A stretch of 64,000 bases of DNA from Rhynchopus sp. YZ270_cl-10 (taxonomy: Eukaryota). A program made the translations under genes and the position numbers. Of the stretch, positions 14,601 to 63,069 are shown in pieces. How positions within the stretch are numbered: the stretch's first letter is position 1; every line of letters starts with the position of its first letter. The stretch is taken from positions 1,240,001-1,304,000 of the forward strand of contig OZ037833.1 of the NCBI GenBank assembly GCA_964035575.1. Reading direction: 5' to 3'. The notes beneath the pieces are model-generated. The model saw only the letters and a program-made list of their open reading frames with translations, had not been told where the DNA came from and made no database searches.

Positions 14601-17600
14601 CAACTGCGGGGGCGGCCAAGTGCTCGACGAACGAGTGCGACTTCCACGAGAAGACGTGTTCCGACGTGGGACAGGTGTGCTACGACCCGGACCTGTCGGC
14701 GCAGTCGCTTGGAGACTGGACCTGCACATGTGTGGCACCGTACGTGGGGTCGCAGGTGGCAGCGGCGGCAAAGTGCCAGGTGGACGAGTGTGAGCTGTAC
14801 GGACACGTGTGCACGGCTGCGGGACAGACCTGTGTTGACGAGGAGAAGGACATGGCGGGCTTCTGGAAGTGTGTCTGCCCGCCACCGAACGAGAAGTTCA
14901 AGCGTAACATGGGTGTGGCAGACTGCGTTGTCGACGAGTGCACGACATGGACGAACACAAGCACCCCGTCTGCGATGCCGTCGAACGACCGGAACGCAGT
15001 GAACCTGTGCGAGCAGGCTGGGCAGGTGTGCGAGGACCCGAACCACAACGCGTCGTCTGCTGGGGACTGGACGTGCACGTGCCCGTCTCCGGGGAACAGA
15101 ACTGCGCGTGCACACGTGGCGACGTGCGATGTGGACGAGTGTGCGGACCCTGCGAAGGAGTCTGTGTGTGAGGCCAAGGGGCAGCGCTGCGTGGACCCGA
15201 ACTGGGAGCCTGGTCACGAAGGCGACTGGACGTGTGTGTGCGTGCCGCCGTCGGTTGGGACGGGGATGCAGGCTGTGGCCGTGTGCCTGGTGGACGAGTG
15301 CAAGACCGAAGGTGCTGTGTGCCAGTCAAGCGGTCAGCTGTGTGTTGACACCAACCATGCGGAGGCTGGGACGTGGGCGTGCGAGTGTGTGGCACACGCG
15401 GGCGTGAACGCGTCGCAGCTGGGAGGACTGGCAGACTGCAACCCGCCGTCGAGCGAGTGCAGAATTGACGCAATCCGCGAGGTGTGCACGTCGTCGAACC
15501 AGGGCTGCTACGACCCGGACCTGAAGGCACACAACGACTGGGTGTGCGAGTGCGTGCCGCCTGCCACAGGACCGCAGAAGCAGGGTGAGGCGACAGTGTG
15601 TGTGCTCGACGAGTGTGAGGAGGAGTGCCCGACATGCGGGAAGTCGGTGTGCGCGGCCGCGGGTCAGACGTGCACAGACGCGAACACGGACGCAGCCTCG
15701 CTGAGCGACTGGACTTGCACATGCCCGACCCCCTCGACAGGATCGAAGAAGGGAGGCGTGGCGGTGTGCCAGCTGGACGAGTGTGCTGCGGTGTGCGACG
15801 GCTGCCCGTCGGACATCTGCACTGCGGCAGGTACGCAGTGTGAGGACACGAACAAGGACGCACGTTCGCCCGGAGACTGGGAGTGCGTGTGCCGTGCACC
15901 TGCCCTGGGACGTGTGACACAGGGCGTGCCGGTGTGCCTGATTGACGAGTGCGAGCAGAACGCACACAAGTGCGCGGATGGGCAGACGTGCGCTGACGCG
16001 AACAAGCTTGCGGCGTCCGAGGGAGACTGGACGTGCACGTGCCCGCCGCCGACGTCTGGAATTGCGGTGGCGAGTGCGGCAGTGTGCTTCGAGAACGAGT
16101 GTCTCGTGGACGACAATGTGAAGACGTGCACTGCAGGGGGACAGGTGTGCATTGACCCTAAGCCGCAGCCGACGAACAAGGGTGACTGGGAGTGCCACTG
16201 CGCGCAGGGGAAGACCTTTGCTGTGGCGGCGGCAGCAGTCTGTGTGCTGGACGAGTGTGTGGAGCAGTGCACGTCGTGCGCGGACAGCGGGGGTGGTAAC
16301 GTGTGTGCGAAGGCCGGGCAGCTCTGCACGGACCCGAACACGTCGCCGGAGAGCACACGTGACTGGAAGTGCCAGTGTGCGGCAGGGGAGAAGGCTGCGC
16401 TTGGTGGCCCTGCGACGTGCGAGGTGGACGAGTGCTGGCAGCCAAGCAACTTTGGTGCACACACGTGCCATGACACACCGCGGACGACGGTCGACGGGTG
16501 TGCGTGCCAGTGTGGCTGGCAGGTGCAGGATGCGGCGCAGTACCCCGGGGCACACGGTGCTGGTATTGAGGTGGGCTGTCTGGCTGGGTGCTGCAACCCG
16601 AACGTCGTGGCGTCGGGGGCGTGGTGCCTGCTGGAGCCTGTGCAGACGACGGCCGTGTGCCAGGACCTCGTGACTGCGGGGGAGATGGTGCAGACGTGCG
16701 CGGTGCTGGCGTCGGGAGTGGCACCGGCGAAGCCGGAGAACCTGTGCACGAAGGCGGGCCAGGTGTGCGTCGACCCGGACACGAGTGCGACGAGCTCTGG
16801 TGACTGGCGGTGCGAGTGCGTTTCGCCGGCGAGCGGAGACCCGAGTGTCGGGAAGGCTGGGTCGTGCAAGATCGACGAGTGCGAGAAGAACGGGCAGGTG
16901 TGCTCTGCGGCGGGACAGCTGTGCAAGGACGCGGACAAGGCGACGGAGAACACGTGGGAGTGTGTGTGCCCGTCGCCTGCGACAGGGTCTGCGACCGGGA
17001 AGGTTGCGGCGTGCGTGTACGTGGGTGAGTGCGAGACGGCAAGCATTGCGGAGGTGTGCGAGCAGGTGGGGCAGACGTGCTACGACCCGGACGCAGCTGT
17101 GACTGGGGACTGGGTGTGCAAGTGCGTGGACCCGGCGACGGGTGTGCCTGCTCTCATGACGACGGCGACGTGTGTGCTGGACGAGTGCACGGCGGAGTGC
17201 CCGACGTGTGCGGACAAGGGGTTCGGAAACCTGTGCGATGTGGCTGGACAGCACTGCGTGGAGTCGTCGACGTCGCCGGCAGACGTTGAGGACTGGATGT
17301 GCAAGTGTGTTGGAGACGCCGTTGGGGAGTCTGTGGCATCTGTGGCCGTGTGCACGCTGGACGAGTGCAAGATGAACAACGGACGCCTGGCACAGCTGTG
17401 CGGTGCGGCCGGGCAGACCTGCAACGACCCGAACAAGGCGGTGCTTGGGGGTCTGAACGACTGGGAGTGCGTGTGCCCTCCACCAAGCATCGGGCGTGTG
17501 ACGGGGAAGCTTGCAACGTGTCTGCGTGATGAGTGCCTGGAGACAGACGTGGCTGCGGTGTGCACGTCGGCAGGACAGACGTGCCAGGACCCGAACACGG

Positions 17601-20600
17601 ACGCACGCAGCACCGGAGACTGGACGTGCGCGTGCTCGGCGAAGCCGGGTGAGACACCGAAGGTGGCGAAGGGGAAGGCCGCAAAGTGCGTGCTGCCGCC
17701 GAGCTCGTGGTGCGTGCAGCACGGCGAGACGTGCACGTTCCTGGGACAGGCGTGCGTGCCCGCGGCAAGCATTCTGGAAGACGGCTCGTGCGCATGCATT
17801 GAGCCGCAGACAGGGCCGACGAAGGTGGGGGCGGCAACAGTGTGCATCCTTGACGAGTGCACGGCGGTTTGTGCGACGTGTGCCGACCACGGTGCCGGTA
17901 ACGTGTGCGACAAGGCGGGACAGACGTGCCAGGAGGGAAGCATGAACCCTGTGACCGGGAAGGGAGACTGGCGCTGCAAGTGTGCCGGGTCGGACATGTC
18001 GGCGGTGGCGGCAGTGGCGGTGTGCACCGTGAACGAGTGTGACACAGACGAGAAGGCAAAGGTGTGCGCAGCTGCGGAGCAGACGTGCACAGACAAGAAC
18101 ACGGCCGGAGACTCGCTGAACGACTGGATGTGCGCATGCCACGAGCCCTGGACGGGGAGCAAGATGCTCGGGGCTGCGGACTGCAAGTTTGACGAGTGCC
18201 TGTTCGCCGGAAGCGAGTGCACGGCGCTGGGGCAGACCTGCTTCGACAAGGACACGTCTGCACAGGTGCGTGGTGACTGGGAGTGCCGCTGTGTGGCGCC
18301 TGCAGAGGGCTTCGCTATTGCGAAGGCAGCGACGTGTGTGTACACGGGGGAGTGCGAGAAGCAGGAGATCGCAGAGGTGTGCACGAAGGCAGGACAGACC
18401 TGTGTGGACCCGAACCCGGCTGTGGCGGACGACTGGGAGTGCCGCTGCGTGTCGCCCGAGGCAGGATCACACACCAGGGGGGCAGTGGCGGTGTGCATGC
18501 TGGACGAGTGCCGTGCGACGTGCTCGTCGTGTGCAACGAAGCCAGGGTCGCTGACACACGCATGCGCGTCTGCGGAGCAGGACTGCATGGACCCGGACAC
18601 AGCAGCGACAAGCATTGCGGACTGGAAGTGTTCGTGCCGTGCGCCTGCGTCTGGGGAGATGGTGGGTGCGGCGGCTGTGTGCAGCGTGGACGAGTGCTAC
18701 AATGCAGAGAACCGTGCGGCGTGCTCGCGTGTGAAGGACACAACAGGGGCGGAGGTGCAGCACTGTGTGGACAAGGACTACACAAAGACCGGGGACTGGG
18801 TGTGCGAGTGCATGTACCCGTACCACGGAACCGCGGGACAGCGTGAGGCGGCAGTGTGCGTGGTCGACGAGTGCACGGCGCCGGAGGCGTGGAGCAAGCG
18901 CCCGAACGGAAACGCGGTGTGTGGGGCGAAGGGACAGACCTGCCTCGACCCTCAGCAGGGTGTGGCATCGGAGTTTGAGAACTGGGTGTGCCAGTGTGCG
19001 GACGGTACTGGGGAGCCGAACAGGGGTGCGCCGTCGACGGATTGCAAGCAGGACACACTGTGTGCGCAGTTCGGGTCTGCATGCGGGCCGCTCGAGATGT
19101 GCGTGGAGAAGGAGGACGTGTGGTCGTGCAGGTGCATTCCGCCCTTCGTGGGTGAGGCTGCTGGGAAGGCGGCATCCTGTGTGCTGGACGAGTGCACGGC
19201 GGAGTGCACGACGTGTGCGCAGCAGGGTGCAGTGCACATGTGCACGCAGGCCGGGCAGAAGTGCGTGGACCACGACAAGTCACCGGACAGCCGTTCCGAC
19301 TGGTCGTGCGTGTGCGAGGTCGGGAAGGGAGAGGCTGCTCTCCACAAGGCGGAGTGCATGGTTGACGAGTGCACGCTGAACGGAGTGACGTGCGAGGGTA
19401 AGGGCCAGGAGTGCGTTGACCCGGACATGCATGCCGAGACAAGCGGAGACTGGGTGTGCCAGTGCATTGCGCCTGCGGCTGGTAAGGCCGTGGCCGGACC
19501 TGCTACATGCCTGCTTGACGAGTGCAACCTGTACGGCGGGAAGTGCACAGTGGTGGGACAGGTGTGCATTGACCAGAACACTGCTGCGGCGAGTCTGAAC
19601 GACTGGACGTGCAACTGCCCGGCACCTTCGTCGGGATACATGTACGCTGGACCTGCATCGTGCACGTACACGGGGGCGTGCCAGGACGCTGCGAACTTGG
19701 ACGTGTGCGCGGATGCGGGTCAGCGCTGCTTCCCAGGGAACTCGTCGGCAGACGACTTCAGGTGTGGGTGCATGCCGCCGTACCGTGGCACTGCTGGGGT
19801 GCGTGCCCCTGCACAGTGCATGATCGACGAGTGCGAGGACATCTGTGCAACGTGCGCGCGCACAAACGAGAAGGCTGTCAACGTTTGCGCGGGTGCGGGC
19901 CAGCGTTGCGAGGACCCGAACCTGTCTGTGCAGAGCCTGGGTGACTGGGTGTGCATGTGCCAGGCCCCGTCGACAACAGCGGCCGTTGCGCATGCTGTTG
20001 ACAGCTGCCTTGTGGATGAGTGCCTTGCCATCACCATGACAGGTGCACGCAAGTGCGACAACTTCAAGCGCTACACGAACGACGGCTGCGAGTGTGCGTG
20101 CGGCTGGAAGGTCAGCGGCATCAACGGCGGCGGTCCCGGCCTTGACGAGAACTGCAACACAGGATGCTGCAACCCGGACAAGGCAAAGGAGGGAGACTGG
20201 TGCATTGTTGCCGACAGTGCCTTCAACAAGAAGAGCGGTGTCTGCAGTGCGCTTATCAGCAAGCAGCAGACGTGTGCGAACGAGCGTGCACCTGCCCCTG
20301 CAGGCGCACCTGTGAGCGAGTTTGTCGACATCTGTGCTGCCTCTGGCCAGCGTTGCTACGACCCTAACCACAACCCAAGTGTGCAGGGTGACTGGGAGTG
20401 CCACTGCACAACCTCTGAGGACTACCACATTCTTACCCCGGCAAAGTGCAGTATGTGTTTTTCCCTCCCTCTCTTCTTCTTCTTCTTCTGGTGGTTTTGT
20501 TGTTTTCCTTTTTCCTTTTTATGATGAGTTGTTGGAAAAGTAACTGTGTTTCTGAGTTAACCCACACGCACACGCCACACTTGGCGCATACCCCGCACTT

Positions 20601-24728: not shown

Positions 24729-24957
24729 CACGACGGTGAAGTAACGGGTGTTACAAGTGGAGTTACAAGTGAGTTACATGTAACTTTTGTTACATGTAAC
24801 TCACTTGTAACCCACTTGTAACCCACCAGTTACAACCTGATTTTGCCTGTAATTCATGTATCCCACTTGTAACTCACTTGTAACTCACTTGTAACGGTTT
24901 TTCACTTGTAACGTTACTAGTAACTTCACTTGTAATGTACTATACTTCACCGTCGTG
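24729..24957. mobile_element. 229-bp MITE, CACTA/EnSpm(CMC)-like
   Basis: 15-bp TIRs CACGACGGTGAAGTA, 2-bp TSD TC, internal GTTACAAGTG/CACTTGTAAC subterminal repeats. A second copy lies inverted at 42659-42887. Confidence 0.85.
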
Positions 24958-27174: not shown

Positions 27175-27226
27175 TATAGTGGAGTTCATCCTCGGGGTGT
27201 CTACACTAATACAACCAAGTTTTCAA
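27175..27226 (+). repeat. ~52-bp dispersed mini-element, family 1
   Basis: TATAGTGGAGTTCATCCTCGGGGTGTCTACACTAATACAACCAAGTTTTCAA followed by an A-tract. Confidence 0.9.
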
Positions 27227-37939: not shown

Positions 37940-40279
37940 ATGGATGACGCAGACGCACTGATTGCACAGGCGTCAGATTTGGTGGAAGGGCTTTCGGAGG
38001 GTGCTGGGACACCACCACCACCACCACCTGGCACGGACACGGGTGCTGCACATAACAACACCGTGGAGGTGGGGAGCGTACCGTTGGCAACGCTGCCGTC
38101 TTCAGCACTGCCCTCAGCACTGCCCACCTCAGATGCAGGGCGCACGCTGCCCCCCTCCTCTGCACCCACCATCACCCCCCTACCCGTACCCGTCTCAGAC
38201 GTAGCAGTTGTTGAGGCCGCGGCCCCAGCACACAACCCAGACGACAGCTCAGACGACGAGGAGCTCAAGGCCCCCGACACAGGGCTTGTGTTGGTGCCGG
38301 ACAACGTCGCAGATAAGCCTCTTGATGAGCATCCGGGATTGGTCCCGTTGGTACCGGGTATGGAATTTTTTTTTCCCCCTATGATTACGTGCAATGCTAA
38401 AAGGAAATTGAACACCGTACCCTACTCCCATCCTTTTTTCCATTTTTCTAATCCGGGGCGGGTTGGAGTAGAGCCACACTTCACCGACAGGTTGAGGTGT
38501 GTGCGTTTCACCACAACCTCTCCCTTTTTGCCTTTATTGTTTTCATTGCTTTATTGTTTGCGGGGGTGGGGGGAAAACATAAAAAGGAACAGTGGGGTGC
38601 GGTTTCAATTTTGTTTCTTTTTTTCAGGGTCACTGCATTAGAAATTCCCCCAAAATCCCCCATTTTTTTTTTTTTGTATTTTTTGAATCTTTTTCCATTT
38701 ATGGCTACCTGCTTGGACACATCTCCCCTACCGACCCCTCCTCCCCACACAAAAAAAAAAAGCGTTTTGTATAGTGCATCCTCGGGAGACCTACACTAAT
38801 ACAACCAAGTTTTCAAACAAAAAACAAAGAGTGGAAATCATAAACAAAAACATTTTGAAACACCCCACAGGCCACGAGGCACCCTGCTGCAACGGCATTG
38901 TGTACGGCTTCGACGTCGACGATCTCTCCTTCAAGCCATGGCGCCAGGAAGGCTGCGACGTCCACGACTACTTCAACTACGGCTTCAACGAAGAGCTCTG
39001 GCGTGCACACTGCCTCTTACAGCCTAGGGGGAAGGAGGCCTACGAGAACAGGGTATGTCCCCCATCCATAGCATCTTTTTTTTTTGAGGAATCTGGTGAT
39101 ATTTTTTCCACATAGTAGTGCCTGTCTGCCGATGTAATGTGGTGAGGCGTTTGCACTTATCTTTTTTTCTTTTCCCGCTTTTTAACGTCGTATTTCTCTT
39201 GTTTTTGATGAAATTAGTTGTAATTCTGTAACGTAACTCCACGCTAGCCCATCACACCCACCACCCAACAGGCCATCGAACAACAAAAGAAAGCCAAGCG
39301 CCATGCCAAACAGCAACGTGACGCTGCCAAACGCAAGCGTTCCCCTGAGCGCGACACCCTCCCCACCGTGCAGGCTGCACAGGCTGCAGAGAACGCAAGC
39401 ACGGCACTCATACAGCGTCTTATCGCAAGCAGGTCCGCTGGGAACCTGCCGCCATCGTCCACAGGCACACCGCCACCCACATCCTCATCCACACAGCCGA
39501 ACCTGCTAGCTGCATTGGGAGCACCGATTCCTGCAGGCCTGGCCACAAACAACAACAACAACAACAACAACAGCAACAACAATAACAACAACAACACACT
39601 TCTCAACACCAACTTCCAAGCCCTCCTCAACCAAACCGGCGAGCCGCCTAACAAAATGCCACGCACAGAGGAGCCAGGCAAGAACGACAACTCGAACCAA
39701 AACCAAAACCTTGCGGACATGCTGCGGTTACGTGGTGCGCCTGCGTTTGGGGGGAACTTCAACAACACCAACGTGATCGGGGACCGCAAAGGTGGCAAAG
39801 GAGGCTTCAAGGGCGGCAAAGGCGGGAAGGGCGGCGGCAACTTCGAGATGCCCCAGCAGCCGATGTTCCCTACCAACCCGCTTGGCGGGAACTTCCAGGC
39901 ACCACCCCCGATGGGCGTGCCTGGGCTGGGTGCGGGGTTGCCGGCACCAGGGGTTGGGGGGGAGGCGGGGGCGCCGGGGATGGGTGTGACTGCTGGGGCT
40001 ATGCAAAGCTTGATGAACTTGCTTACGGGGGCTGGCGGTGGTGTGGGCAACATGGGTGCGGGGGGAGGAGCAAACCCCCCTCTCCCAGGGGGCCCTATGC
40101 CGATGGGCAACATGCCCAACATGCCAAACATGCCCAATCTCTCCAATATGCCTAACATAGCAAACCTGCCAAACCTACTCCCAGGCAATCTACCCATGCC
40201 TATGGGTAACACCCTCAGCAACCCACCCCTCCCTGCCTTCCCAAACTTCCTCGGGAACAGGAACAATACTAACATGTGA
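37940..40279 (+). CDS. FIP1: FIP1-like polyadenylation factor (~535 aa). Exons 37940-38357, 38871-39052, 39272-40279
   Basis: Fip1 motif FDVDDLSFKPWRQEGCDVHDYFNYGFNEELWRAHC in exon 2, low-complexity N/G/P-rich C-terminus, consistent intron phases. Confidence 0.85.
38470..38524 (+). mobile_element. Degenerate fragment of the YR-retrotransposon terminal repeat (A/B junction) in FIP1 intron 1
   Basis: AGAGCCACACTTCACCGACAGGTTGAGGTGTGTGCGTTTCACCACAACCTCTCCC versus AGAGCCACTCCTCACCAAACAGGTCGAGGTGTGTGCGTTTCACCACAACCTCTCCC at ~60142-60197. Confidence 0.85.
38759..38816 (+). repeat. Dispersed mini-element, family 1 (with AAAGCGTTTTG 5' extension)
   Basis: Matches the consensus; the 5' extension is shared with the 60648-60709 copy. 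Confidence 0.85.
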
Positions 40280-42136: not shown

Positions 42137-42182
42137 CTCATCCTCGGAGGTCTACGCTAAATACAAAAATTCAAGTTTTCAA
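42137..42182 (+). repeat. Dispersed mini-element, family 1 (degenerate)
   Basis: CTCATCCTCGGAGGTCTACGCTAAATACAAAAATTCAAGTTTTCAA. Confidence 0.65.
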
Positions 42183-42658: not shown

Positions 42659-42887
42659 CACGACGGTGATGTACAGTACATTACAAGTGAAGTTACTTGT
42701 AACGTTACAAGTGAAAAACCGTTACAAGTGAGTTACAAGTGAGTTACAAGTGGGATACATGAATTACAGGCAAAATCAGGTTGTAACTGGTGGGTTACAA
42801 GTGGGTTACAAGTGAGTTACATGTAACAAAAGTTACATGTAACTCACTTGTAACTCCACTTGTAACACCCGTTACATCACCGTCGTG
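42659..42887. mobile_element. 229-bp CACTA/EnSpm-like MITE, inverted copy of 24729-24957
   Basis: TIRs CACGACGGTGATGTA, 2-bp TSD TA, near-identical reverse complement of copy 1. Confidence 0.85.
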
Positions 42888-45794: not shown

Positions 45795-45849
45795 ATAGCG
45801 GAGCGTAGCCTGAGGGTGTCTACACTAAATACAAAAACCAAGTTTTCAA
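45795..45849 (+). repeat. Dispersed mini-element, family 1
   Basis: ATAGCGGAGCGTAGCCTGAGGGTGTCTACACTAAATACAAAAACCAAGTTTTCAA. Confidence 0.75.
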
Positions 45850-51755: not shown

Positions 51756-52777
51756 ATATGAAAGCATGGCGGTATATGGGGGGAGGGGGAGAGGGAGGGA
51801 GGGAGGGTACCAAAGAACATCCTACGTCCGTAGCGGCGTTGGGTGAGACAAACGATATTAGAACTGTTAAAAAAAAATGGACCATTTTGTGTTTACAGTA
51901 TTTTTTAATGAAGGTGTCGGAAATTATGTATTTTTATCGGCGAAAACCGAGGGAAAAACTCTGTTTCAATTCCGCAAAACACAATGGGGGTTTCCTTGAG
52001 GGGCACTTCCTTGAATGCTGTGCAGAAGATCTGTGTTACCACCCATGACTCGCATTCTTGAGTTTTGTGGTAGGGTGTCCATTCCGTTTCGTTAGGTAGA
52101 TGTACATGTAGTTCCGTGGCAAAACTTCATTGTTTTTGTTACAAATAAGATGAAACAATTGGTTACAAATAAGATTCAAAAGTTCATGATGCTCCACATC
52201 ATACAACCAGCGACGGCAGGCAGTACCATGTAAAAGAAAGAGGAAAACCTTTTATCTTTACACGGCCACCTCTTCTCTCGGTCTTCCTCGCTTCCCTTTT
52301 CGCACCAGCACAACTCACCCCCCATTTGTCGTCAGAGTCAGAGACGTGGCCTCAAACGCGCGGCCTGCGTCTCCGCATGGCATGCGCCGTCCGCCATCAC
52401 GCGCAAGGTGTTCAGGCGTCTCACCCACGATCTTTTGTTCGTTCCGAGTAGGGTTCACCCCGATAGGCCACCCCACCGACCTTCTTCTCCGGCATTGCGA
52501 AAAAGGCCCTGGTCAGAGTCCTGTCTCCCCACCTGAGGCCTGAGGCTCCAGGGGAAGTCCTTCAAGAACTCCACGCCTTTGACATAATATCTTCACCGTG
52601 GCCCGGTACCGTCACATCGTACTCCCGCTCTAGGCGGAAGGGGCAGAGACCGCCTCCTCTCCTCACCTTCCTGGTCCTTTGGGGCGGGGGTGAACATCTC
52701 TTCCATATACTGATGTCGCTTGCATGTTGTTCGACCCCCTGACCCTCAAACCCCTTCACAAAAAAACAGCGTACACA

Positions 52778-53671
52778 ATGAGCGATGGCGAGGGTGAGTT
52801 CATGCTCGTCGTCGGCCATGGCAGTCGAGGGCGTGCGAAGGTGAAGAAAACCGGGATCAACACTACTGAGGGGATGTTTCAGGAGCGGAGCACAGATCGG
52901 CCTGATGTGTTTGATGTGGCACCTGCACGGAGGGAGCAGATGTCCGCACCGGAAGCTGCCGCATGCGTCAAACGCATGAAGGCCGAACTGCGCACACACG
53001 CCACCGGCACGACAACACTCGAGGGCCTGCAACGTGCCCTTGCCGACATCACCCACACCACCACCACCACCACCCTCTCCTGCCTCGGAGTCGGCAGCAT
53101 CGTAGCCTCCTCAGTCTCACGCTACCAGACAGCCTTATTCCTTCTCATGGTCGACCTCCTTGCAGACGCACTCAAAGACAAACCTATCATGTACGACCCA
53201 ATCTTCTCCGAAGCGGATGAGCTTGTCTGTGAAACGCTTGGCCTCGCAGTAGGGCGGGAGAACAGCGAAGGGAAGGAGGTGGTGTCGGGGCGCACCGTGC
53301 TGTTCATGCCGCATTGCAGTAGGAGTCTGTACGCGAATTTGCTGAGGGTGAATTGGAGTGTGGAGGCGTTAGGTGCGTTGGTGGTGGTGGGGAACAGCTT
53401 TCCCGACTACCTGCTGCGTGCAGTGTCAAAGGGGGACCGGCAGTCCGTTGCAGGCATGGCTCGTCTCGAGTCTGCCACCTCCTGCGTGCATCTCCCTCGC
53501 TTCCGTCCCTCCACCACAGCCTTCTCAGACACAAGCGTCATGTGGTTTCCATCCGACAAACTATCAGCCATAGAAGCTACAGTCTGGACCACACCCCCAC
53601 CACCACCCTCACAAGACCATGATCTTGCAACAAAGGAGGATACGGAGAAGAAGCGGAAGAAGAGGAAGTGA
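52778..53671 (+). CDS. SRR1-domain protein (SRRD/Ber1-like)
   Basis: CLGVGS...SRYQTAL...YDPIFS...LFMPHC...LYANLL..NW...VVVGNSF motifs and a C-terminal basic NLS. Confidence 0.88.
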   Translation: MSDGEGEFMLVVGHGSRGRAKVKKTGINTTEGMFQERSTDRPDVFDVAPARREQMSAPEAAACVKRMKAELRTHATGTTTLEGLQRALADITHTTTTTTLSCLGVGSIVASSVSRYQTALFLLMVDLLADALKDKPIMYDPIFSEADELVCETLGLAVGRENSEGKEVVSGRTVLFMPHCSRSLYANLLRVNWSVEALGALVVVGNSFPDYLLRAVSKGDRQSVAGMARLESATSCVHLPRFRPSTTAFSDTSVMWFPSDKLSAIEATVWTTPPPPPSQDHDLATKEDTEKKRKKRK

Positions 53672-54576: not shown

Positions 54577-57500
54577 ATGCCCGAACTCAAAGTAGGCTCG
54601 GACACCTCGCATCTGGGAAGTGGGCTTATTGGGACACCGCCGGACCTGCCGGTCTCGCCTGTGGCTGATAGCGCAAATGTATGGCAAAAAAAAAATACTG
54701 AATTTTGAAAGGCTTAAACTGGTTTGTAAAGTTGATGTGGAAAAATGGACACAAATTAATTTTTGACTCTAAAAAAAGAGTACTTCTTTGCCTTCTTTGC
54801 ATGAGCTCGACTGAGATGCGTTTTAGTACGTTTCAACTGCTCTTCTTTTGTACTACAATTTCTGACTGAGTACACGGTGTTGGGTTATCTTACCAATATT
54901 ATTTTGTCACCTCATGAAATGAAGGAGGAAATAGAAACGAAGCATTTTGAACACACTTTGCGGTTCTAGAGACGAACCGCGCTGCAGAGCCACTCCTCAC
55001 CAAACAGGTCGAGGTGTGTGCGTTTCACCACAAATCTTACACAACCTCTACAAAAATAAAATGTCCCGGGCAGACATGCGTCTGGACGATGTCAAGTGGG
55101 AGGAGATAAAGGTGGTGTCGGAGGTCCCCAAGGGAGCTTTGGCGCCGACGCAAATTCCGGACTGTGTGTTTCCCCAGTGCGGTGAAACACACAGTGACGG
55201 AGAATCGGGCACGTGCCGTATGTGCGGTAGGCGGACGACGACCGCATGCCTCACCGCCAACCTGCAGGCTCATGGGGACGCACTCGACACTTTCTCGGTC
55301 GGGTTCAAGGACACGACGTGGGTTTGTCCCGTGTGTGCAGTACGGGTGCACCAGGGGGTACAACAGTGGGATATGCGTGACAAGAGCGAAGGTAAGGAGG
55401 CGGAGCCAGACCAGCAAGGAGGGCTTCTACAACGGGTAAAGGACCCCGCATCCCAGCAACTTTTCGAAGCTCTTTTGGCGGAGCGGGAGGCACATCGGCA
55501 GGAGCGCGAAGAAATGAGATTGGAGAGAGATGAGGTGACGCGGGGACTGACGGGAACCCTCATCCAGAGGGTGTCGTCATGGTACGGCCGAATGCGCTTC
55601 CCGGCGATGCAACAGATGGCGCGCCATGCCCTTTACGAGAGGTATGGTCGCGGCGCGGAGGACGCAGGTACCGCCGCTTCGGGGACGGAGCACGAGATCC
55701 GCACGCTGTATGGCGTCATTCTTCCCTTGCTCCCTTTGGTGGTGGCCCATCCGGAGGCAAGGGAGGCGGTGCACAGGGGGGTGTTGAGGATGGAGTCCGT
55801 GCGTCTCCGTACGTATTACGGACACGATGCAGCGGTCTTGTGGGAGACCAGGATGCAGCACATCCTGTGTGCGGACCTGACGGAGCAGCTGCTTCGGGCA
55901 GTTACGGCGCAGGCCCAGACCGCGGGGGAAAAGGAGGCCGAGCAGAGGAAGAGGAGGAGAATTGAAGGGGACTCAAATTTTGCGCAGGGAGACGTTAGGT
56001 TCGGACAGAAGGGGGGAAAAGGGGGAAAAGGGGGAAAGGGGGGGAAGGGGAAGAAGTGACAGTCCCACCCACCCACCCATCACGAGGAACTGCTACGGGT
56101 CGAGGGGGAGAAGGTGTTGTGTGCGCAGCAGCCGCAGCAGAACAGACTAAACTACGTAACTGCGACACCAAATCACACCACGAAACAAAATCCGAAGAAA
56201 GCAGATGGCAGCGTACTGCAAAACATACTAAACTTCAAAGATACAACACCAACTCACAACACGAAGCAAAATCCGAAGAATGGCAGCGCATTGCAAAACA
56301 TACTAAACTACAAAGATACAACACCAAATCACAACACGAAGCAAAATCCGAAGAAGGGCAGCGCATTGCAAAACATACTAAACTACAAAGATACAACACC
56401 AACTCACAACACGAAGCAAAATCCGAAGAAGGGCAGCGCATTGCAAAACATACTAAACTACAAAGATACAACACCAACTCACAACACGAAACAAAATCCG
56501 AAGAAAGCATGTGCCAGCGCACTGCAAAACATACTACGGGGAGAGGGGGAGAGGATGCAGGGACGGACGGCGGACAGGGTGGAGACGGGGCTGCAGCGGA
56601 GGTTACGGCAGGAACCGTGCACTCTGGGGAGACCGCGCAGATACGAAGGGGGTCACCTCACGCTAGAGGAGAGGGACAAGATCACCACGAATGCAAACCT
56701 TATCCTCGACCAGGCTTTGGCGAAGAGTACGTGGGGGAACATAGCGTCGTGCTACCGCCGTTTCGCGGAGTTTCGCAAAGCATGGGAGGAAGCCGAAGGC
56801 GTGCTGGACGTTCCGACTGCGATCATCTTGTGGGTATCCAAGAAGCTAGAGATGGACGGCATAGCTCACAGCTCTGCGCTGGCTTACACGTACGCGATCT
56901 CTTCTGCGCGCAAACACCTCTTGGAGAAGCCGGTCGAAAGCACGAAGCTGGACGCTTTCCGGAGGGGTTTACGGCGAATGGGAGCCGAGGTTCCGAGGGT
57001 GCAAGCCATACCGGCGACAAGGGAGGAAGCGGAACAAGCCATGCGAGAGGAAAGCGACCCCGAAGTGCGTCTAGCGATAGGTTTGATGTGGTACGGAGCT
57101 GCAAGACACTCAGACGTGATGAGCATCGCCGCGAGGGAGGTAACGACTCAAGGGGATACATCGGCGATCACCTGGAGAGGAACCAAGAACGATCCCTTTG
57201 GGAAAGGACAGACGACGGGACTGACGCTGGACAAGGGCATGACGCAGCTACTACACAGGGCGAAACGAGGGAACCAGGGGCAACTTCTGCAACACGCATC
57301 CTATTTCAAAGTAGCGAAGGCACTGAAGAAGGTCAACAAGAAGCTGACTCCACACAGCCTACGGCGGGGGGCAATACACAGGCTTGTCACAAGGGACGTG
57401 GAGTTGGAAGACGTGTGCAAGGTGACGCGACACAAGACCGTGGAGGGGCTTCTGCAGTACGCGCCGCTGGCAGCAACGACACTGGTAAAGAAGACGGCCG

Positions 57501-60500
57501 CGATCTCTCAGCTCCTATGAGAAAGTTGCTTGGGGTGCAGCGTTTCCCACAGCAAACACAGTCCACCATACGGCGAGTGTCATTCAGCGAGATCCTGACT
57601 CCGTCTGTACAAGCATACGATACATCAAATGAGGAACCAGACTCTTACTCAGCGGGCTTCGAGGCGTGGTACGACAACGATTTCTCGGTGGAAGTGGAAG
57701 GGGAACACGTACGGCCGGATTCCAGGAGGGAACCCAGGGGACAGATGGCACGGATCTCGTCGAACCGAATGGACCTGGACGCGATCCGGAGGATGGATGC
57801 CGAGGGGGAGACAGATCAGGTACTGGATGTGATCACCAACTTTGATAGATTCATGTCGCTGTTCACGGAAAAGCCCCCGAACAAGCTATCACGTGGTACC
57901 TCCCGACACATGGCGCAATACGCGAGTGCACTACGCGAATGGGGAGTTGTCGAGGCTGCTGAAGGAGGTGACGGGGTGGTGCTGCCCGCTTTCACAGTGG
58001 CGAAGAAGTCGGGAGAACTGAGATTGGTGGTGGACGCCCGACGTCTAAACCGGATAATGGTTAGGCCTCCTGAGATGCGGCTGCCGCTTATCCGAGATGT
58101 AGTGCGCGACATCGTGGTCTCGGAGGCCGTGTGCGTTGCAGACGGAGTCTCGTACTTTTACCAGATCCCTCTGGCTCACGAGATCCGTAAGTACTTCTCG
58201 CTGAGACTGGCGGGCGCACGGGGAAGTACGGAGGATGTGCAGCTGGCAGTGCTGTGCATGGGGTGGTCATGGAGTCCCGCAATAGCACAGCGTATCTCGA
58301 GGGTTTTGGTGGGACGACAGAACATTGCGTGGGTGGACAACTTTCTACTTCTGGGAAAAAGCAGCGCACTCGCAGCAGAGGAGTACAGGAAGTTCAAAGG
58401 GAGGTGCGACACGGCTCAAGTGGAGCTACACGAAGAAGAAGGGGGGAGACCGCAACAGCGTTTCGAAGCACTCGGGCTGGAATTCGATCTTACTGTGAAA
58501 GGCTTCAGATCTACAGAAAAATGGGTGGCAAAGCTCGTTGAGTCGGCGGAGGTGAAGGCAGCTATCGAAGGAGGAACTTCGCCGCGGGCTTTCTTCAAGG
58601 TGGTAGGATCCATTGTGTGGTGGATGTACACCCGTGATAGACGTTTGTGTTTCTTCCCGAGTATGATTGGAGCGGTGCGGAGCGTAGCTAAACACGCCAC
58701 TACTGAACAGAGTTGGGATCACAGTGTAACGATACAGCAAGGCGCAGTGCGGGAAATAAAAGGGTGCATAGAGGAAATCTGCGAGAACGTGTGGGTTCCT
58801 CAGAAGGGACTTGGGACGGCGACACTGGTGGTGTGGACGGATGCATCTAGCACTGCCTGGGCGGCGGTCACCGACTGGCGACAGGGGGCACAGGGAGCCT
58901 TCCAGAGCACAGAGAAAGAACATCACATATTTTTGAAAGAAATGTGGGCGGCATTCATGGGAATTAGGCTGGCGAGCAGTTTAGGGTTTACCGGAGGAAC
59001 CCTCACCCTGCGCATCGACAACCTACCGGTGGTGCGATGTCTTGAGAAGGGCCACTCGGGGAACTACCTCGCAAACCTGATGATGCAGGAAATGTTCCTA
59101 CTCGCGGACCGTAAGGGGATGGCGGTGCGGCCACTGTGGGTATGCACGGCGGAACAGGTGGCTGACGAGTTCACGCGAGGATCACAGATTGAGCAGATAG
59201 TGGGGATTTAATTGAGGGGTGCGGGAGGGTTTTTTGTTGGGGGGGGGGGGGGGGGGGGGTGTTTTTTCTTTACTTGTTTTGTTTTATGCGGAATGTACCG
59301 CCCGTGGTTGGCGTATAACCGTTTTTTCTGTGCAAGTACTATCCCTAGAGTGGGAAGGTACCGCCCGAGTGTGGCATATAACCATTACGTGTGTGCAAAG
59401 TAAGACCCCGAGAGTGGGAATGTACCGCCCGTGTGTGGCAAAAATCCGTTTTTTCTGTGCAAGTACTATCCCTAGAGTGGGAAGGTACCGCCCGAGTGTG
59501 GCATATAACCATTACGTGTGTGCAAAGTAAGACCCCGAGAGTGGGAATGTACCGCCCGTGTGTGGCAAAAATCCGTTTTTTCTGTGCAAGTACTATCCCT
59601 AGAGTGGGAAGGTACCGCCCGAGTGTGGCATATAACCATTACGTGTGTGCAAAGTAATACCCCGAGAGTGGGAATGTACCGCCCGTGTGTGGCATGAAAC
59701 CGAACTGTTGTGAAAAGGAATACCCCGAGAGTGGGAAGGTACCGCCCGGGTGTGGCCGGTATCCGTTTTGTCTGAAATAAAATAACTTAAGAGTAGGGGC
59801 GTTCTTTCCGACCGAGAGTGGCAATAGTTTTTAAAGGGACCGATTACACAAGAAGTGGCAGTGTACATACTGGAGTGGTAGTTTGCGTCTGAGAATGACA
59901 TGAGAGCGACCAGTGTAAACGAACAGCCTAGAGGGCAACAAGATTATGAGAAGGCTGAGGGATCGAAGCGATCCCCAGTCCCAAAGGGGGTTGGGTGTGT
60001 GCGTTTCACCACAACCTCTCCCATGGGTTTTATCGTGTGATGAGTGTTAAGTTTCTATTTTGTCACCTCATGAAATGAAGGAGGAAATAGAAACGAAGCA
60101 TTTTGAACACACTTTGCGGTTCTAGAGACGAACCGCGCTGCAGAGCCACTCCTCACCAAACAGGTCGAGGTGTGTGCGTTTCACCACAACCTCTCCCATG
60201 GGTTTTATCGTGTGATGAGTGTTAAGTTTCTATTTTTCTTTACTACTTTGATCTGGTTAGAGCACTACACCACCACCACCACACAGGCACGGCATGTGCG
60301 CGCACGCACCTACACCACCCTGACCGCACCACCAGACATGGCAGTGCAGAAGCTGCACGCAACCACGTCGGACTACAACGCCAGCGCCTCGGAGACAGAC
60401 GGTGCCTACCCTGTGGGCACACTAGAGGTGTGTGTTTAGCAGCATCCCCCCTCCTCCTCCTCCTCTTCCTCTTTTTTTCGTGCCAAAAATTAAGATTGGC

Positions 60501-62211
60501 TTCCACACCGGAGCCGCTTCCACGCTTTCTACACTTTTGTTTAAGATACGCACCTGAGGCTTGTGTCTACCTTTTTTTGTCCACTTGCCTCTCGACAAGG
60601 TTGGCTTTGAGAACAACGGAACTTCCTCATAGAGGGGGTTTTCCCCCTTGAAAACTTGGTTGTATTAGTGTAGACACCCGAGGATGAACTCCACTATACA
60701 AAACGCTTTACCCCTTTTTGTCAGGACCCCCTCAACCTCCTTAAGAGCATTTGACGTCCTTTTCGGCGCTTTATAACACATTATTAAAACTACCGTGCCA
60801 CTTTCAATCTGTTCCCTGTACCCCCCTCATCCTCCACCCACAGGGCGCACTGCAGTTCAACGAGATCTTCCACCACTGCCTCACCTCTGGCAAGCGCCCT
60901 GCACAACGTGCCTTTCTCTCTAGCTGGAAGAGCTTCATGCTTGACGAAGCAGAGGCACACTACAAGGCTAACCCCGACGACTACATCGCGGTATGCACGT
61001 GGTCCCCCTTCAGCCCCGTCAGGCTCTTTAGATAAGGCAACGAAAGGAGCAGAGCGCCAAAGGCGTGACGTTACTTTTGATTTACTTTCTTTTTCCATTG
61101 CGTTGCTGTGCCATTAACTCTGTTACACGAGAGGCACAGTCGTCTTTCAAGTTTTCTTTTGTGTCCACCACACCCCTTCCCCCCTCAGCTGTGCTACGAC
61201 ATCTCTGACTACGAGGAGTGCTTCTGGAACTACCGTACCAACGCATACTGCACACCTGAAGAGGCAGAACAGTTTGACGAGGTGCTGGAGCAGGTCTTTG
61301 CGACCAAGGGCAGCTTTCTGGACGAGGCCGTGCAGGACAAGACCACATCGCACTTCACTGCTGCGTGCGGGGCGAGCGTTGCTACCACATCGATGCAGGG
61401 CTGGCGCTCTGCGAATGAAGACGCGCATGTCTTAGAGCAGCTTCAGCCTGGGTGTCTGCTGACTGCGATTCTAGACGGTCATGGCGGGTCTCGTGTCGCA
61501 GAGCACTGCGCACGGCACCTTGCGCGTCACGTGGCAGCGCATCTCCCTGACATCGACTTCTCATCCAAGCCTGCCACATCTGCCGCACGCAGCCCTCTGC
61601 AAGCCGCCCTCCAAGCCGCCTTCCTTGCTGTCGACGACGACGTCGAAACCAACATGAACCCCGACCACTACGGCGCAGCAGGCACCACCCTCAACGCACT
61701 CCTCCTCACACCACACCACTACGTTGTCGCCAACACGGGAGACTCTCGCCTCATTGTCATCCGCGAAGCTGCAGGCACCGCCTCAGTCGAACGCCTCAGC
61801 CACGACCACAAGCCCGACTCCCCAAGAGAGCAGGCACGTATCACAGAGGCAGGTGGGCATGTTTCCGATGGTAGGGTTGAGGGGCTGCTTGCGGTGAGTC
61901 GCGCGTTGGGTGACTTTGATTTTAAACAGGCAGGAGGGTTGGATCCGTGCCGTCAAGAGGTAACAGCGTTTCCGGATGTGGAGTTGTGTGAGCGGCGTCC
62001 AGAGGACATCGCGGTGCTGCAGGCGTGCGACGGCATCTGGGACTGCATGAGTGATGCGGAGGTCGGCGACTTCGTTGTCTCACGCCTCCAAAAAGGCCTC
62101 CCACACACCGAGATCGCAGAAGCCATCTGCAACCACTGCCTTGCCCCTGAAATATGCGAGTCCGGATTAGGCACAGACAATATGAGTCTGCACCTTCTGG
62201 TTATGCGGTGA
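54577..62211 (+). CDS. Protein phosphatase 2C (PPM family), ~470 aa. Exons 54577-54678, 60287-60427, 60844-60990, 61189-62211
   Basis: MQGWRSANEDAH, ILDGHGG, AGTT, ANTGDSR, DHKP, LAVSRALGD, ACDGIWD and GTDNMS motifs in exon 4. Upstream exons join in phase 0 via GT...CAG introns; exon 1 is the least certain. Confidence 0.85.
55061..56059 (+). CDS. Gag-like ORF1 of the YR retrotransposon (332 aa)
   Basis: Cys-rich zinc-finger-like N-terminus (CVFPQC..CRMC..CPVC), coiled coil, basic (KGG)n tail; first ORF of the element. Confidence 0.75.
   Translation: MSRADMRLDDVKWEEIKVVSEVPKGALAPTQIPDCVFPQCGETHSDGESGTCRMCGRRTTTACLTANLQAHGDALDTFSVGFKDTTWVCPVCAVRVHQGVQQWDMRDKSEGKEAEPDQQGGLLQRVKDPASQQLFEALLAEREAHRQEREEMRLERDEVTRGLTGTLIQRVSSWYGRMRFPAMQQMARHALYERYGRGAEDAGTAASGTEHEIRTLYGVILPLLPLVVAHPEAREAVHRGVLRMESVRLRTYYGHDAAVLWETRMQHILCADLTEQLLRAVTAQAQTAGEKEAEQRKRRRIEGDSNFAQGDVRFGQKGGKGGKGGKGGKGKK
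56145..56537 (+). repeat. Internal tandem repeat, ~5 copies of 75-81 bp
   Basis: Units start at 56165, 56246, 56321, 56396 and 56471. All periods are multiples of 3. Confidence 0.95.
56555..57520 (+). CDS. Tyrosine recombinase (frame is open from 56060 and is the same frame as gag)
   Basis: Catalytic set R (GAARHSDV), K (TKND), HxxR (PHSLRRGA), H (TRHKT) and Y (LLQYA) is complete. Confidence 0.92.
   Translation: MQGRTADRVETGLQRRLRQEPCTLGRPRRYEGGHLTLEERDKITTNANLILDQALAKSTWGNIASCYRRFAEFRKAWEEAEGVLDVPTAIILWVSKKLEMDGIAHSSALAYTYAISSARKHLLEKPVESTKLDAFRRGLRRMGAEVPRVQAIPATREEAEQAMREESDPEVRLAIGLMWYGAARHSDVMSIAAREVTTQGDTSAITWRGTKNDPFGKGQTTGLTLDKGMTQLLHRAKRGNQGQLLQHASYFKVAKALKKVNKKLTPHSLRRGAIHRLVTRDVELEDVCKVTRHKTVEGLLQYAPLAATTLVKKTAAISQLL
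57517..59211 (+). CDS. Reverse transcriptase-RNase H (frame is open from upstream of 56056)
   Basis: FTVAKKSGELRLVVDARRLN, DGVSYFYQIPL, LCMGWSWSP, WVDNF; RNase H WTDAS...LKEM...RIDN...VADEFTR. The ATG overlaps the YR stop (ATGA). Confidence 0.92.
   Translation: MRKLLGVQRFPQQTQSTIRRVSFSEILTPSVQAYDTSNEEPDSYSAGFEAWYDNDFSVEVEGEHVRPDSRREPRGQMARISSNRMDLDAIRRMDAEGETDQVLDVITNFDRFMSLFTEKPPNKLSRGTSRHMAQYASALREWGVVEAAEGGDGVVLPAFTVAKKSGELRLVVDARRLNRIMVRPPEMRLPLIRDVVRDIVVSEAVCVADGVSYFYQIPLAHEIRKYFSLRLAGARGSTEDVQLAVLCMGWSWSPAIAQRISRVLVGRQNIAWVDNFLLLGKSSALAAEEYRKFKGRCDTAQVELHEEEGGRPQQRFEALGLEFDLTVKGFRSTEKWVAKLVESAEVKAAIEGGTSPRAFFKVVGSIVWWMYTRDRRLCFFPSMIGAVRSVAKHATTEQSWDHSVTIQQGAVREIKGCIEEICENVWVPQKGLGTATLVVWTDASSTAWAAVTDWRQGAQGAFQSTEKEHHIFLKEMWAAFMGIRLASSLGFTGGTLTLRIDNLPVVRCLEKGHSGNYLANLMMQEMFLLADRKGMAVRPLWVCTAEQVADEFTRGSQIEQIVGI
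59290..59770 (+). repeat. Tandem array of eight 63/64-bp units (127-bp higher-order dimer) in the element 3' region
   Basis: GTACCGCCCG at 59295, 59358, 59422, 59485, 59549, 59612, 59676 and 59739. Confidence 0.95.
60648..60709 (-). repeat. Dispersed mini-element, family 1, in PP2C intron 2
   Basis: Reverse complement reads AAAGCGTTTTGTATAGTGGAGTTCATCCTCGGGTGTCTACACTAATACAACCAAGTTTTCAA. Confidence 0.9.
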
Positions 62212-63019: not shown

Positions 63020-63069
63020 ATAGTGGAGCACACTCTAGGGTGGCTACACTAATACAACCAAGTTTTCAA
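63020..63069 (+). repeat. Dispersed mini-element, family 1
   Basis: ATAGTGGAGCACACTCTAGGGTGGCTACACTAATACAACCAAGTTTTCAA followed by an A-rich tract. Confidence 0.85.

Follow-up and report, generated by a model that had tools for sequence, protein, structure and literature searches.

VIPER-like retrotransposons are defined by the order gag, then tyrosine recombinase (YR), then reverse transcriptase/RNase H (RT/RH), with YR and RT/RH overlapped (PMC12278014). The split direct repeat layout A1...B1-A2-B2 has been published for both VIPER (Trypanosoma cruzi, Crithidia fasciculata and Bodo saltans) and TATE (Leishmania, Crithidia and Bodo) (PMC6681497), and TATE-like open reading frames (ORFs) are present in Diplonema papillatum (PMC10161547). 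Ngaro and PAT-like elements share split direct repeats and a YR, the order in Ngaro being gag-RT/RH-YR (PMC8547959). In DIRS1-like elements short junction cores match the target (PMC3266345, PMC7192593), and the cDNA of DIRS-1 is mostly linear, single-stranded DNA (PMC7192593). Short units of this layout also occur alone: SIRE of T. cruzi is A2+B2 of VIPER (PMC6681497), and the Cafeteria Ngaro has solo AB repeats (PMC8547959). We analyzed an element of this kind in a 64,000-nucleotide stretch of Rhynchopus sp. YZ270_cl-10 (assembly GCA_964035575.1, contig OZ037833.1, positions 1,240,001 to 1,304,000, forward strand), referred to as the window; all coordinates are positions within it.

As judged from gene order, repeats and motifs, the element is an intact VIPER-like YR retrotransposon, the trees described below containing no VIPER or TATE sequences. 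We propose, with a probability of about 0.66, that it is a multi-copy element with one RNA, from which three proteins are made at the gag stop by termination, readthrough or −1 frameshifting, and that it replicates by means of a 21-bp motif, M. A preliminary description of this DNA had recognized the VIPER-like gag-YR-RT/RH order with split direct repeats, and this assignment held. The layout is less surprising than was implied there, because it had already been published for VIPER and TATE (PMC6681497). That description missed motif M, the RT frame open across YR, the hairpin at the B|A junction and the family of solo AB units.

Organization of the element

The following features, all on the + strand, were located in the element.

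54900..60236, +, whole YR retrotransposon, 5337 bp (repeat comparison)
54900..55033, +, repeat A1, 134 bp, starting with TATTTT, 100% identical to A2
60056..60189, +, repeat A2, 134 bp, 100% identical to A1
59994..60061, +, repeat B1, 68 bp, with M copy 2 at its start and TATTTT at its end, 100% identical to B2
60169..60236, +, repeat B2, 68 bp, with M copy 3 at its start, 100% identical to B1
55013..55033, +, M copy 1, 21 bp, 27 bp upstream of the ATG of gag, possible R-like sequence for strand transfer (relatives share comparable motifs)
55061..56059, +, ORF1, 332 aa, resembling gag in its position alone, with three pairs of Cys and an end rich in GK
55999..59211, +, RT/RNase H frame, −1 to gag and YR, 1070 stop-free codons
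56014..56038, +, tandem of three slippery heptamers read in the gag frame, two canonical (G_GGA_AAA, 56014 and 56023) and one non-canonical (G_GGA_AAG, 56032), where a −1 shift to the frame of RT is predicted
56057..56062, +, gag stop TGA-CAG, in frame with YR directly after it, predicted readthrough site in leaky UGAC context
56060..57520, +, YR ORF, 486 codons when counted from the gag stop, its earliest Met at 56555 (Pfam, structure model, family alignment)
57104..57458, +, YR catalytic residues, R 57104, H 57353, R 57362/57365, H 57431, Y 57458 (family alignment)
from 57517, +, RT/RH domain, WVDN motif with D at 58336 (family alignment)
60051..60094, +, perfect 10-bp inverted repeat (60051-60060/60085-60094) spanning B1|A2, a hairpin or palindrome that YR is predicted to recognize

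Both the A1...B1-A2-B2 arrangement with identical repeat copies and the three unbroken ORFs of the preliminary description were confirmed. The last 21 bp of A are the first 21 bp of B; this motif M is present in three copies (55013, 59994 and 60169), and the element can be written A'-M-interior-M-B'-A'-M-B'. The end of B and the start of A have TATTTT in common (sites 54900, 60056 and 60231). The hexamer is thus present at the left end, the right end and the internal junction, as had been noted, but it is also frequent locally, with 88 matches on both strands of the whole window.

As in the DIRS order, RT/RNase H is combined with a tyrosine recombinase and no DDE integrase. The gag-YR-RT/RH order, the YR/RT overlap and the A1...B1-A2-B2 repeats are those of VIPER-like elements, whereas in Ngaro the YR follows RT/RH. 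No inverted repeat joins the two ends and Pfam gave no methyltransferase hit, unlike DIRS1-like elements. All expected YR residues are present (R349, H432, R435/R436, H458 and Y467), and among 51 family YRs the conservation was 51/51 for R349, 41/51 for H432, 49/51 for R436, 50/51 for H458 and 43/51 for Y467, with R435 below 70%. The match to PF00589 (E 2.6e-5) is below the curated cut-off; the predicted model (pLDDT 84.8) matches Cre/Tre with E 7e-10. An alignment of 27 RTs shows no variation at RNase H residues D442, E475, D501 and D550 or at RT residues D209 and D274. In place of YxDD the element has WVDN, as does most of the family, and the family RT profile matches solved RTs (E 8e-11). 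The full YR and RNase H catalytic sets recognized at first inspection are borne out by these family alignments and by the Cre/Tre match. ORF1 gave neither a Pfam hit nor a usable Atlas hit and contains no CCHC box (CX2CX4HX4C), a box that is found in some VIPERs only and is absent from several published ones.

Copies in parts of the complete-VIPER and complete-TATE files of the PMC6681497 supplement were compared by eye, not by computation. Gene order, YR/RT overlap, repeat layout and lack of a detected methyltransferase are common to VIPER and the window element. In VIPER the RT motif reads WIDN or YLDN and the YR motif HSIKRGA, for WVDN and HSLRRGA in the window; gag and YR occupy one frame, and a slippery heptamer precedes the gag stop. 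The window element differs from VIPER in its distant sequence, in the lack of a CCHC box in ORF1 and in the 21-bp overlap of A and B, where T. cruzi VIPER has a spacer. TATE likewise has YR before RT/RH, split direct repeats, an xIDN RT motif and, in one copy read, a −1-type site at the gag end (PMC6681497). Unlike in the window, the second ORF of TATE is much longer (about 980 aa aligned, Leishmania braziliensis) or fused, and the gag frame closes soon after the stop in the copy read.

Recoding signals at the gag stop

The RT frame covers the whole of YR in −1. No stop was found over the 486 YR codons, where 11.7 were expected (0/10000 synonymous shuffles), and T never precedes AA, AG or GA in the YR overlap (0/144, versus 51/341 elsewhere). 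The opening of this frame precedes the end of the gag stop by 61 nt and the first heptamer by 15 nt. X_XXY_YYZ is the −1 frameshift consensus, UGAC is a leaky context and UGA-CUA/CGG is type II readthrough (PMC3542737). A zero-frame X_XXY_YYZ heptamer together with an open −1 frame is what was found at the window gag stop. The motif classes of the window and its relatives are the same as those of viral recoding sites (PMC3542737), from which they differ in that both signals are predicted to act on one stop and in that no consistent 3' structure was found. From these features a −1 frameshift at the gag end appears quite likely, and UGA readthrough into YR probable. Termination at the gag UGA would give Gag of 332 aa, readthrough a Gag-YR protein of a predicted 819 aa, and −1 frameshifting at G_GGA_AAA a Gag-spacer-RT/RNase H protein of a predicted 1383 aa.

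Reading of TGA as Trp was ruled out: a 5957-aa host ORF in the window carries TGG 125 times and TGA solely as its stop, and four of eight other host ORFs end in TGA.

The signals were then counted in relatives. Of 79 metagenome loci, 62 were examined, 17 with short or 5'-cut matches being omitted. YR was found in 50 of the 62: 40 overlap RT by at least 735 nt, four are circularly permuted, and six distant ones overlap little or not at all. RT lies in the −1 frame relative to YR in all 40, and over about 500 codons of the overlapping relatives this frame contains 0-1 stops versus 8-21 expected. The 40 loci and three permuted ones, after removal of nine without a gag end, six near-duplicates and one with a short upstream ORF, gave 27 elements, which were sorted by eye into 17 with gag in the YR frame (type A) and 10 with gag in the RT frame (type B).

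The type A gag stop is TGA-CT in 14/17 elements versus 0/47 YR and RT control stops, the background among other TGA triplets being 153/4259 (3.6%). TGA-CT elements fall in at least four deep lineages with a median RT identity of 33%. Strict slippery heptamers occupy 10/187 type A positions within 30 nt of the stop versus 9/4517 elsewhere in gag, an enrichment of about 27-fold, and 9/17 elements carry a canonical heptamer within this distance. Two loci, L023 and L031, have both signals back to back, T_TTA_AAC TGA CTA. In type B (L017, L022, L028, L030, L033, L035, L037, L042, L046 and L052) YR is in +1, and no −1 heptamer was found near the stop (0/88 positions). Their stops are often TCC-TGA or ACC-TGA, with TCC-TGA in 3/10. 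TCC-TGA resembles the antizyme +1 site; by this analogy it is a candidate +1 shifty stop, which would fit YR in +1.

A canonical heptamer was also seen at the gag end of all four published copies read, each from a different species, in which this end is visible (PMC6681497): A_AAA_AAC 27 nt upstream of TGA in T. cruzi VIPER, G_GGA_AAC 24 nt upstream of TGA in B. saltans VIPER, A_AAA_AAA 21 nt upstream of TGA in C. fasciculata VIPER, the gag of which looks frameshifted further upstream, and A_AAA_AAC adjoining TAA, followed by an 11-bp stem, in Crithidia mellificae TATE. In the three VIPERs YR is in frame after the gag stop, yet none has C after TGA (PMC6681497). The main text of PMC6681497 has no occurrence of readthrough, translation or stop codon. 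No account of how the YR and RT frames of VIPER-like elements are translated was found in the accessible literature; Lorenzi 2006 and Goodwin and Poulter 2004/2005 may discuss it.

Several observations weigh against the three-protein proposal. The window stop is UGA-CAG and not type II UGA-CUA/CGG, and in type A elements CUA exactly follows UGA in only 4/17, CUN doing so in 14/17. No canonical heptamer lies within 30 nt of the stop in 8/17 elements, in L007 the RT frame opens 8 nt past the stop, and in the window copy G_GGA_AAA could be a chance product of the gag tail, which is GK-rich. Folding without pseudoknots or G-quadruplexes detected no significant stimulatory structure after the window gag stop (z-scores +0.7 to +1.5), and the relatives' gag stops had no consistent 3' structure (mean z −0.27). 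The relatives share ancestry, so their counts are not independent and P values are inflated. Finally, a YR-frame Met lies within 60 codons after the gag stop in 12/16 elements, and an ATGA stop-start is located at the YR end (57517) in the window, with the same arrangement in 4/35 relatives; because of the window ATGA and the nearby Mets, reinitiation or a separate trans-spliced mRNA is possible.

Among the alternatives, it is unlikely that the −1 frameshift alone is real, giving Gag-spacer-RT, with YR made from its own Met and the stop merely terminating. The window context, merely UGAC, agrees with such a scheme, as does the TATE copy whose −1 site is soon followed by a stop in the gag frame (PMC6681497, by eye); three D. 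papillatum proteins that hold the YR region and RT in one chain suggest that YR can be reached otherwise. Left unexplained would be the 14/17 versus 0/47 distribution of TGA-CT and the open stretch from gag stop to first Met, which about 5/16 elements would be expected to show stop-free by chance, a rough figure for a type partly defined by this very feature.

It is quite unlikely that recoding is absent altogether, with YR and RT translated from separate spliced-leader trans-spliced mRNAs or by termination-reinitiation, and with TGACT as a branch-point-like signal. Euglenozoans resolve polycistronic RNA by trans-splicing, and CTGAC resembles a branch point. Pyrimidine-rich tracts lie 30-70 nt past the stop in several relatives, the Mets and the window ATGA are placed as described above, and ATG codons are visible by eye at the gag stop of T. 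cruzi VIPER (PMC6681497). However, separate mRNAs would leave unexplained the −1 frame kept open over some 500 codons in every overlapping relative, the opening of this frame just ahead of the gag stop and the heptamer enrichment, as well as the 165 stop-free codons that precede the first YR Met in the window, where 6.4 stops are expected. Stop-start reinitiation at the YR end was ruled out as a family rule, ATGA being present in 4/35 relatives only; in 19/35 no ATG of the RT frame lies 60 nt or less from the YR stop.

Motif M, element ends and solo AB units

Overlaps of the M type are not confined to the window. All three copies are present in L017, L022, L025 and L028 (7-31 nt) and two copies in L079, L039 and L050; in these seven relatives the motifs in common between A end and B start measure 7-46 nt. 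In the replication model, which we regard as an even bet, the element RNA would begin at the M of A1 and finish at the M that closes A2, with M acting like the R region of retroviruses. One strand transfer of the long terminal repeat type would yield cDNA with M at both ends, and joining of these ends through M a circle with two B|A junctions. YR crossover in the T-run at one junction, marked by the hairpin or palindrome, would then regenerate A1...B1-A2-B2 exactly, whereas closure of the 3' 196-nt M-to-M piece alone would produce 175-bp minicircles inserting as solo AB units.

The 10-bp inverted repeat across B1|A2 was not equalled in length in 100 shuffles (0/100), and the junction folds with a z-score of −2.7. 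Among relatives the junction could be placed in just two, which gave −2.5 (L025) and −7.0 (L079). The two integrated ends do not fold (+0.7 and −0.9). An imperfect inverted repeat was seen by eye across the B|A junction of T. cruzi VIPER (PMC6681497). No description of a hairpin at split-direct-repeat junctions was found in the accessible parts of the literature searched, PMC7192593 included. That the junction hairpin serves as YR substrate is put forward tentatively. Given the mostly linear, single-stranded state of the cDNA of DIRS-1 (PMC7192593), a hairpin of single-stranded DNA is a plausible substrate and a double-stranded circle is not to be assumed; a loxP-like double-stranded palindrome is an equally possible alternative.

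To define the ends, contigs of four sequencing runs (X1-X4, from at most two studies) were matched to 59940-60400, and junctions were counted among the matches listed. Summed depth over 60056-60243 ranged from 1.4e5 to 2e6, versus 54-698 beyond 60260, in all four runs. These matches represent a high-copy solo AB family with the unit A2+B2 (60056-60236) in many unrelated flanks, the contig depth giving no copy number. Among the matches listed, the commonest left junction of other A-bearing insertions is 60058 (23, 26, 24 and 52 contigs in X1-X4), preceded by a T-run and not by TA; right ends 60235 and 60237 lead into unrelated flanks (22 and 29 contigs in X1).

The strict TATTTT core proposed earlier was therefore not upheld, the commonest other left ends carrying T and no TA before them. 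Because the left ends of solo AB copies mostly lack TA, crossover within the T-run is more likely, and TATTTT is probably too long as a core. The underlying scheme of the preliminary description, a double-stranded circle integrating by strict 6-bp TATTTT recombination, is doubtful. It draws on the presence of TATTTT at all three junctions and on the short target-matching cores of DIRS1-like elements (PMC3266345, PMC7192593), but it agrees poorly with the left ends just described, though those copies are mostly solo AB, and with the single-stranded cDNA of DIRS-1.

An empty site, that is a joint from the left flank to 60237, was not among the best 15 of 57 joints. Left-flank contigs end at 54822 in all four runs; a right-flank contig starts at 60250 in X3 and 60249 in X4, with 5 and 16 unmatched letters, possibly a different allele. 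Joints from 55110-55145 to 59995 or 60168-60170 in X3 and X4 point to derivatives with an internal deletion, in which the 5' end is retained and the sequence picks up again where B starts. Metagenome contigs with terminal overlaps of 123-127 bp were rejected as evidence of circles, because collapsed split repeats would look identical.

Like SIRE and the Cafeteria solo ABs, the solo family is a short high-copy unit equal to the A2+B2 of an autonomous element. It differs from them in that A and B of the window element overlap at M, which would allow a direct minicircle route, and in that the solo copies differ from the master. The following additional piece was found.

38470..38524, +, 55-bp piece, 91% like A-end/M/B-start, running on into a different T-rich stretch (seen in 14-15 contigs from three runs)

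This piece suggests another solo family keeping the M region.

The M-based part of the proposal also has observations on the other side. In T. cruzi VIPER, A2 and B2 do not overlap but are separated by a spacer of some 35 bp (PMC6681497 supplement, by eye), so motif M is not universal. Solo AB copies differ from the element at fixed sites, with G60095A in about 98% of depth, and consequently did not come from exactly this master element. The longest inverted repeat beat shuffles (at most 3/100) in only 4/10 B-A units, L025 giving 9/100.

That the repeats are an assembly artefact, or chance AB insertions around unrelated ORFs, is very improbable: the AB unit is very abundant and no contig among those listed in X1-X4 spans either element end by 31 bases, but A1/A2 and B1/B2 are mutually identical yet distinct from the bulk AB family, and the layout recurs in distant relatives and in published VIPER.

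Copy number and affinities

The RT belongs to a 90% cluster of four members, 98-100% identical, on four contigs of 1.0-2.2 Mb. Two members equal the window RT except for the start residue, one has one change and has lost one 25-aa repeat unit, and one has 8/544 changes; one of the four contigs may be the window's own, and the same genome is inferred for all. Interior depth was 216 versus 48-58 in the flanks in X1 and 348 versus 90-107 in X2, about 3.5-4-fold, summed depth being no copy number. The interior was matched with zero differences by a 2748-bp contig in two of the four runs, a contig that may be the window's own source. The near-identical RT copies and the raised interior depth suggest a small, young family of about four near-identical copies, in agreement with the earlier view of a recent, possibly active element.

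The closest named RTs are from Diplonema papillatum (33-44%) and Flectonema neradi (36%), and trees place the window RT with diplonemid proteins (quick IQ-TREE tree of 35 rows, SH-aLRT 97; FastTree tree of 241 rows, 0.99), so that a diplonemid is the likely host, unlike in VIPER. With matches taken up to E 1e-30, the family amounts to 1082 clusters (50% identity). No named VIPER or TATE protein appeared in the homology searches or among 25 database proteins whose names were looked up, and a scan of viral contigs gave no relative.

Five loci (L001:368-3496, L010:60-3149, L014:67-3450, L016:3-2942 and L060:1146-3257) contain a single RT ORF of 700-1130 codons with YR undetected, and are possibly members of the clade that lack YR. 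Three of these contigs (3.6-3.9 kb) overlap at their termini; for the N-terminal halves Pfam gave no convincing hit. YR and RT are joined in one predicted protein in P0042, P0087 and P0140 (P0042 and P0140 from D. papillatum), which may be natural fusions or artefacts of the gene models. P0018, a family RT assigned by its label to a Nitrospira metagenome-assembled genome, is probably eukaryotic contamination.

Other features of the window

The element lies between an SRR1-domain gene (52724-53671) and a PP2C gene (61081-62211), both on the same strand. Two tandem repeats are located within it.

56137..56536, +, 75-bp tandem repeat, 5.2 copies, stop-free in YR and RT frames (one sibling copy short by one unit)
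59290..59774, +, 3' non-coding tandem array, 63/127-bp units (repeat scan)

The window also carries seven copies of a dispersed high-copy repeat of about 52 bp, unrelated to A/B; in the runs its depth is very high and its flanks are T-rich.

60648-60699; about 1375-1421, 27175-27226, 38763-38816, 42138-42182, 45814-45849 and 63020-63069, copies of the 52-bp repeat

The host ORF of 5957 aa (2651-20524) is intronless and Cys-rich with VWA domains. Mirror-image arrays of 11-12 bp units at 24750-24895 and 42721-42866 are apparently one repeat in opposite orientations.

Implications

The split-repeat layout is known; what merits pursuit is the gag stop with its two conserved signals, together with the three copies of M, the hairpin at B|A and the solo AB units. 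In YR retrotransposons an overlap of YR with RT/RH is frequent, and conserved signals on one stop make the question of their translation testable. A wider generalization is speculative, and we lean against it: that the whole large lineage uses the three-way switch at the gag stop, with enzyme routes swapped between sub-lineages, R-like replication by M, T-run hairpin integration and 175-bp minicircles seeding SIRE-like repeats, the switch being present in T. cruzi VIPER as well. The triple motif, the junction hairpin and the solo AB family bear on the model of split-repeat replication and on the origin of SIRE, which was left open in PMC6681497. For genetic work on diplonemids, an element that is intact and active could be a useful tool. 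If true, the proposal would mean nuclear recoding in euglenozoans, T. cruzi VIPER included.

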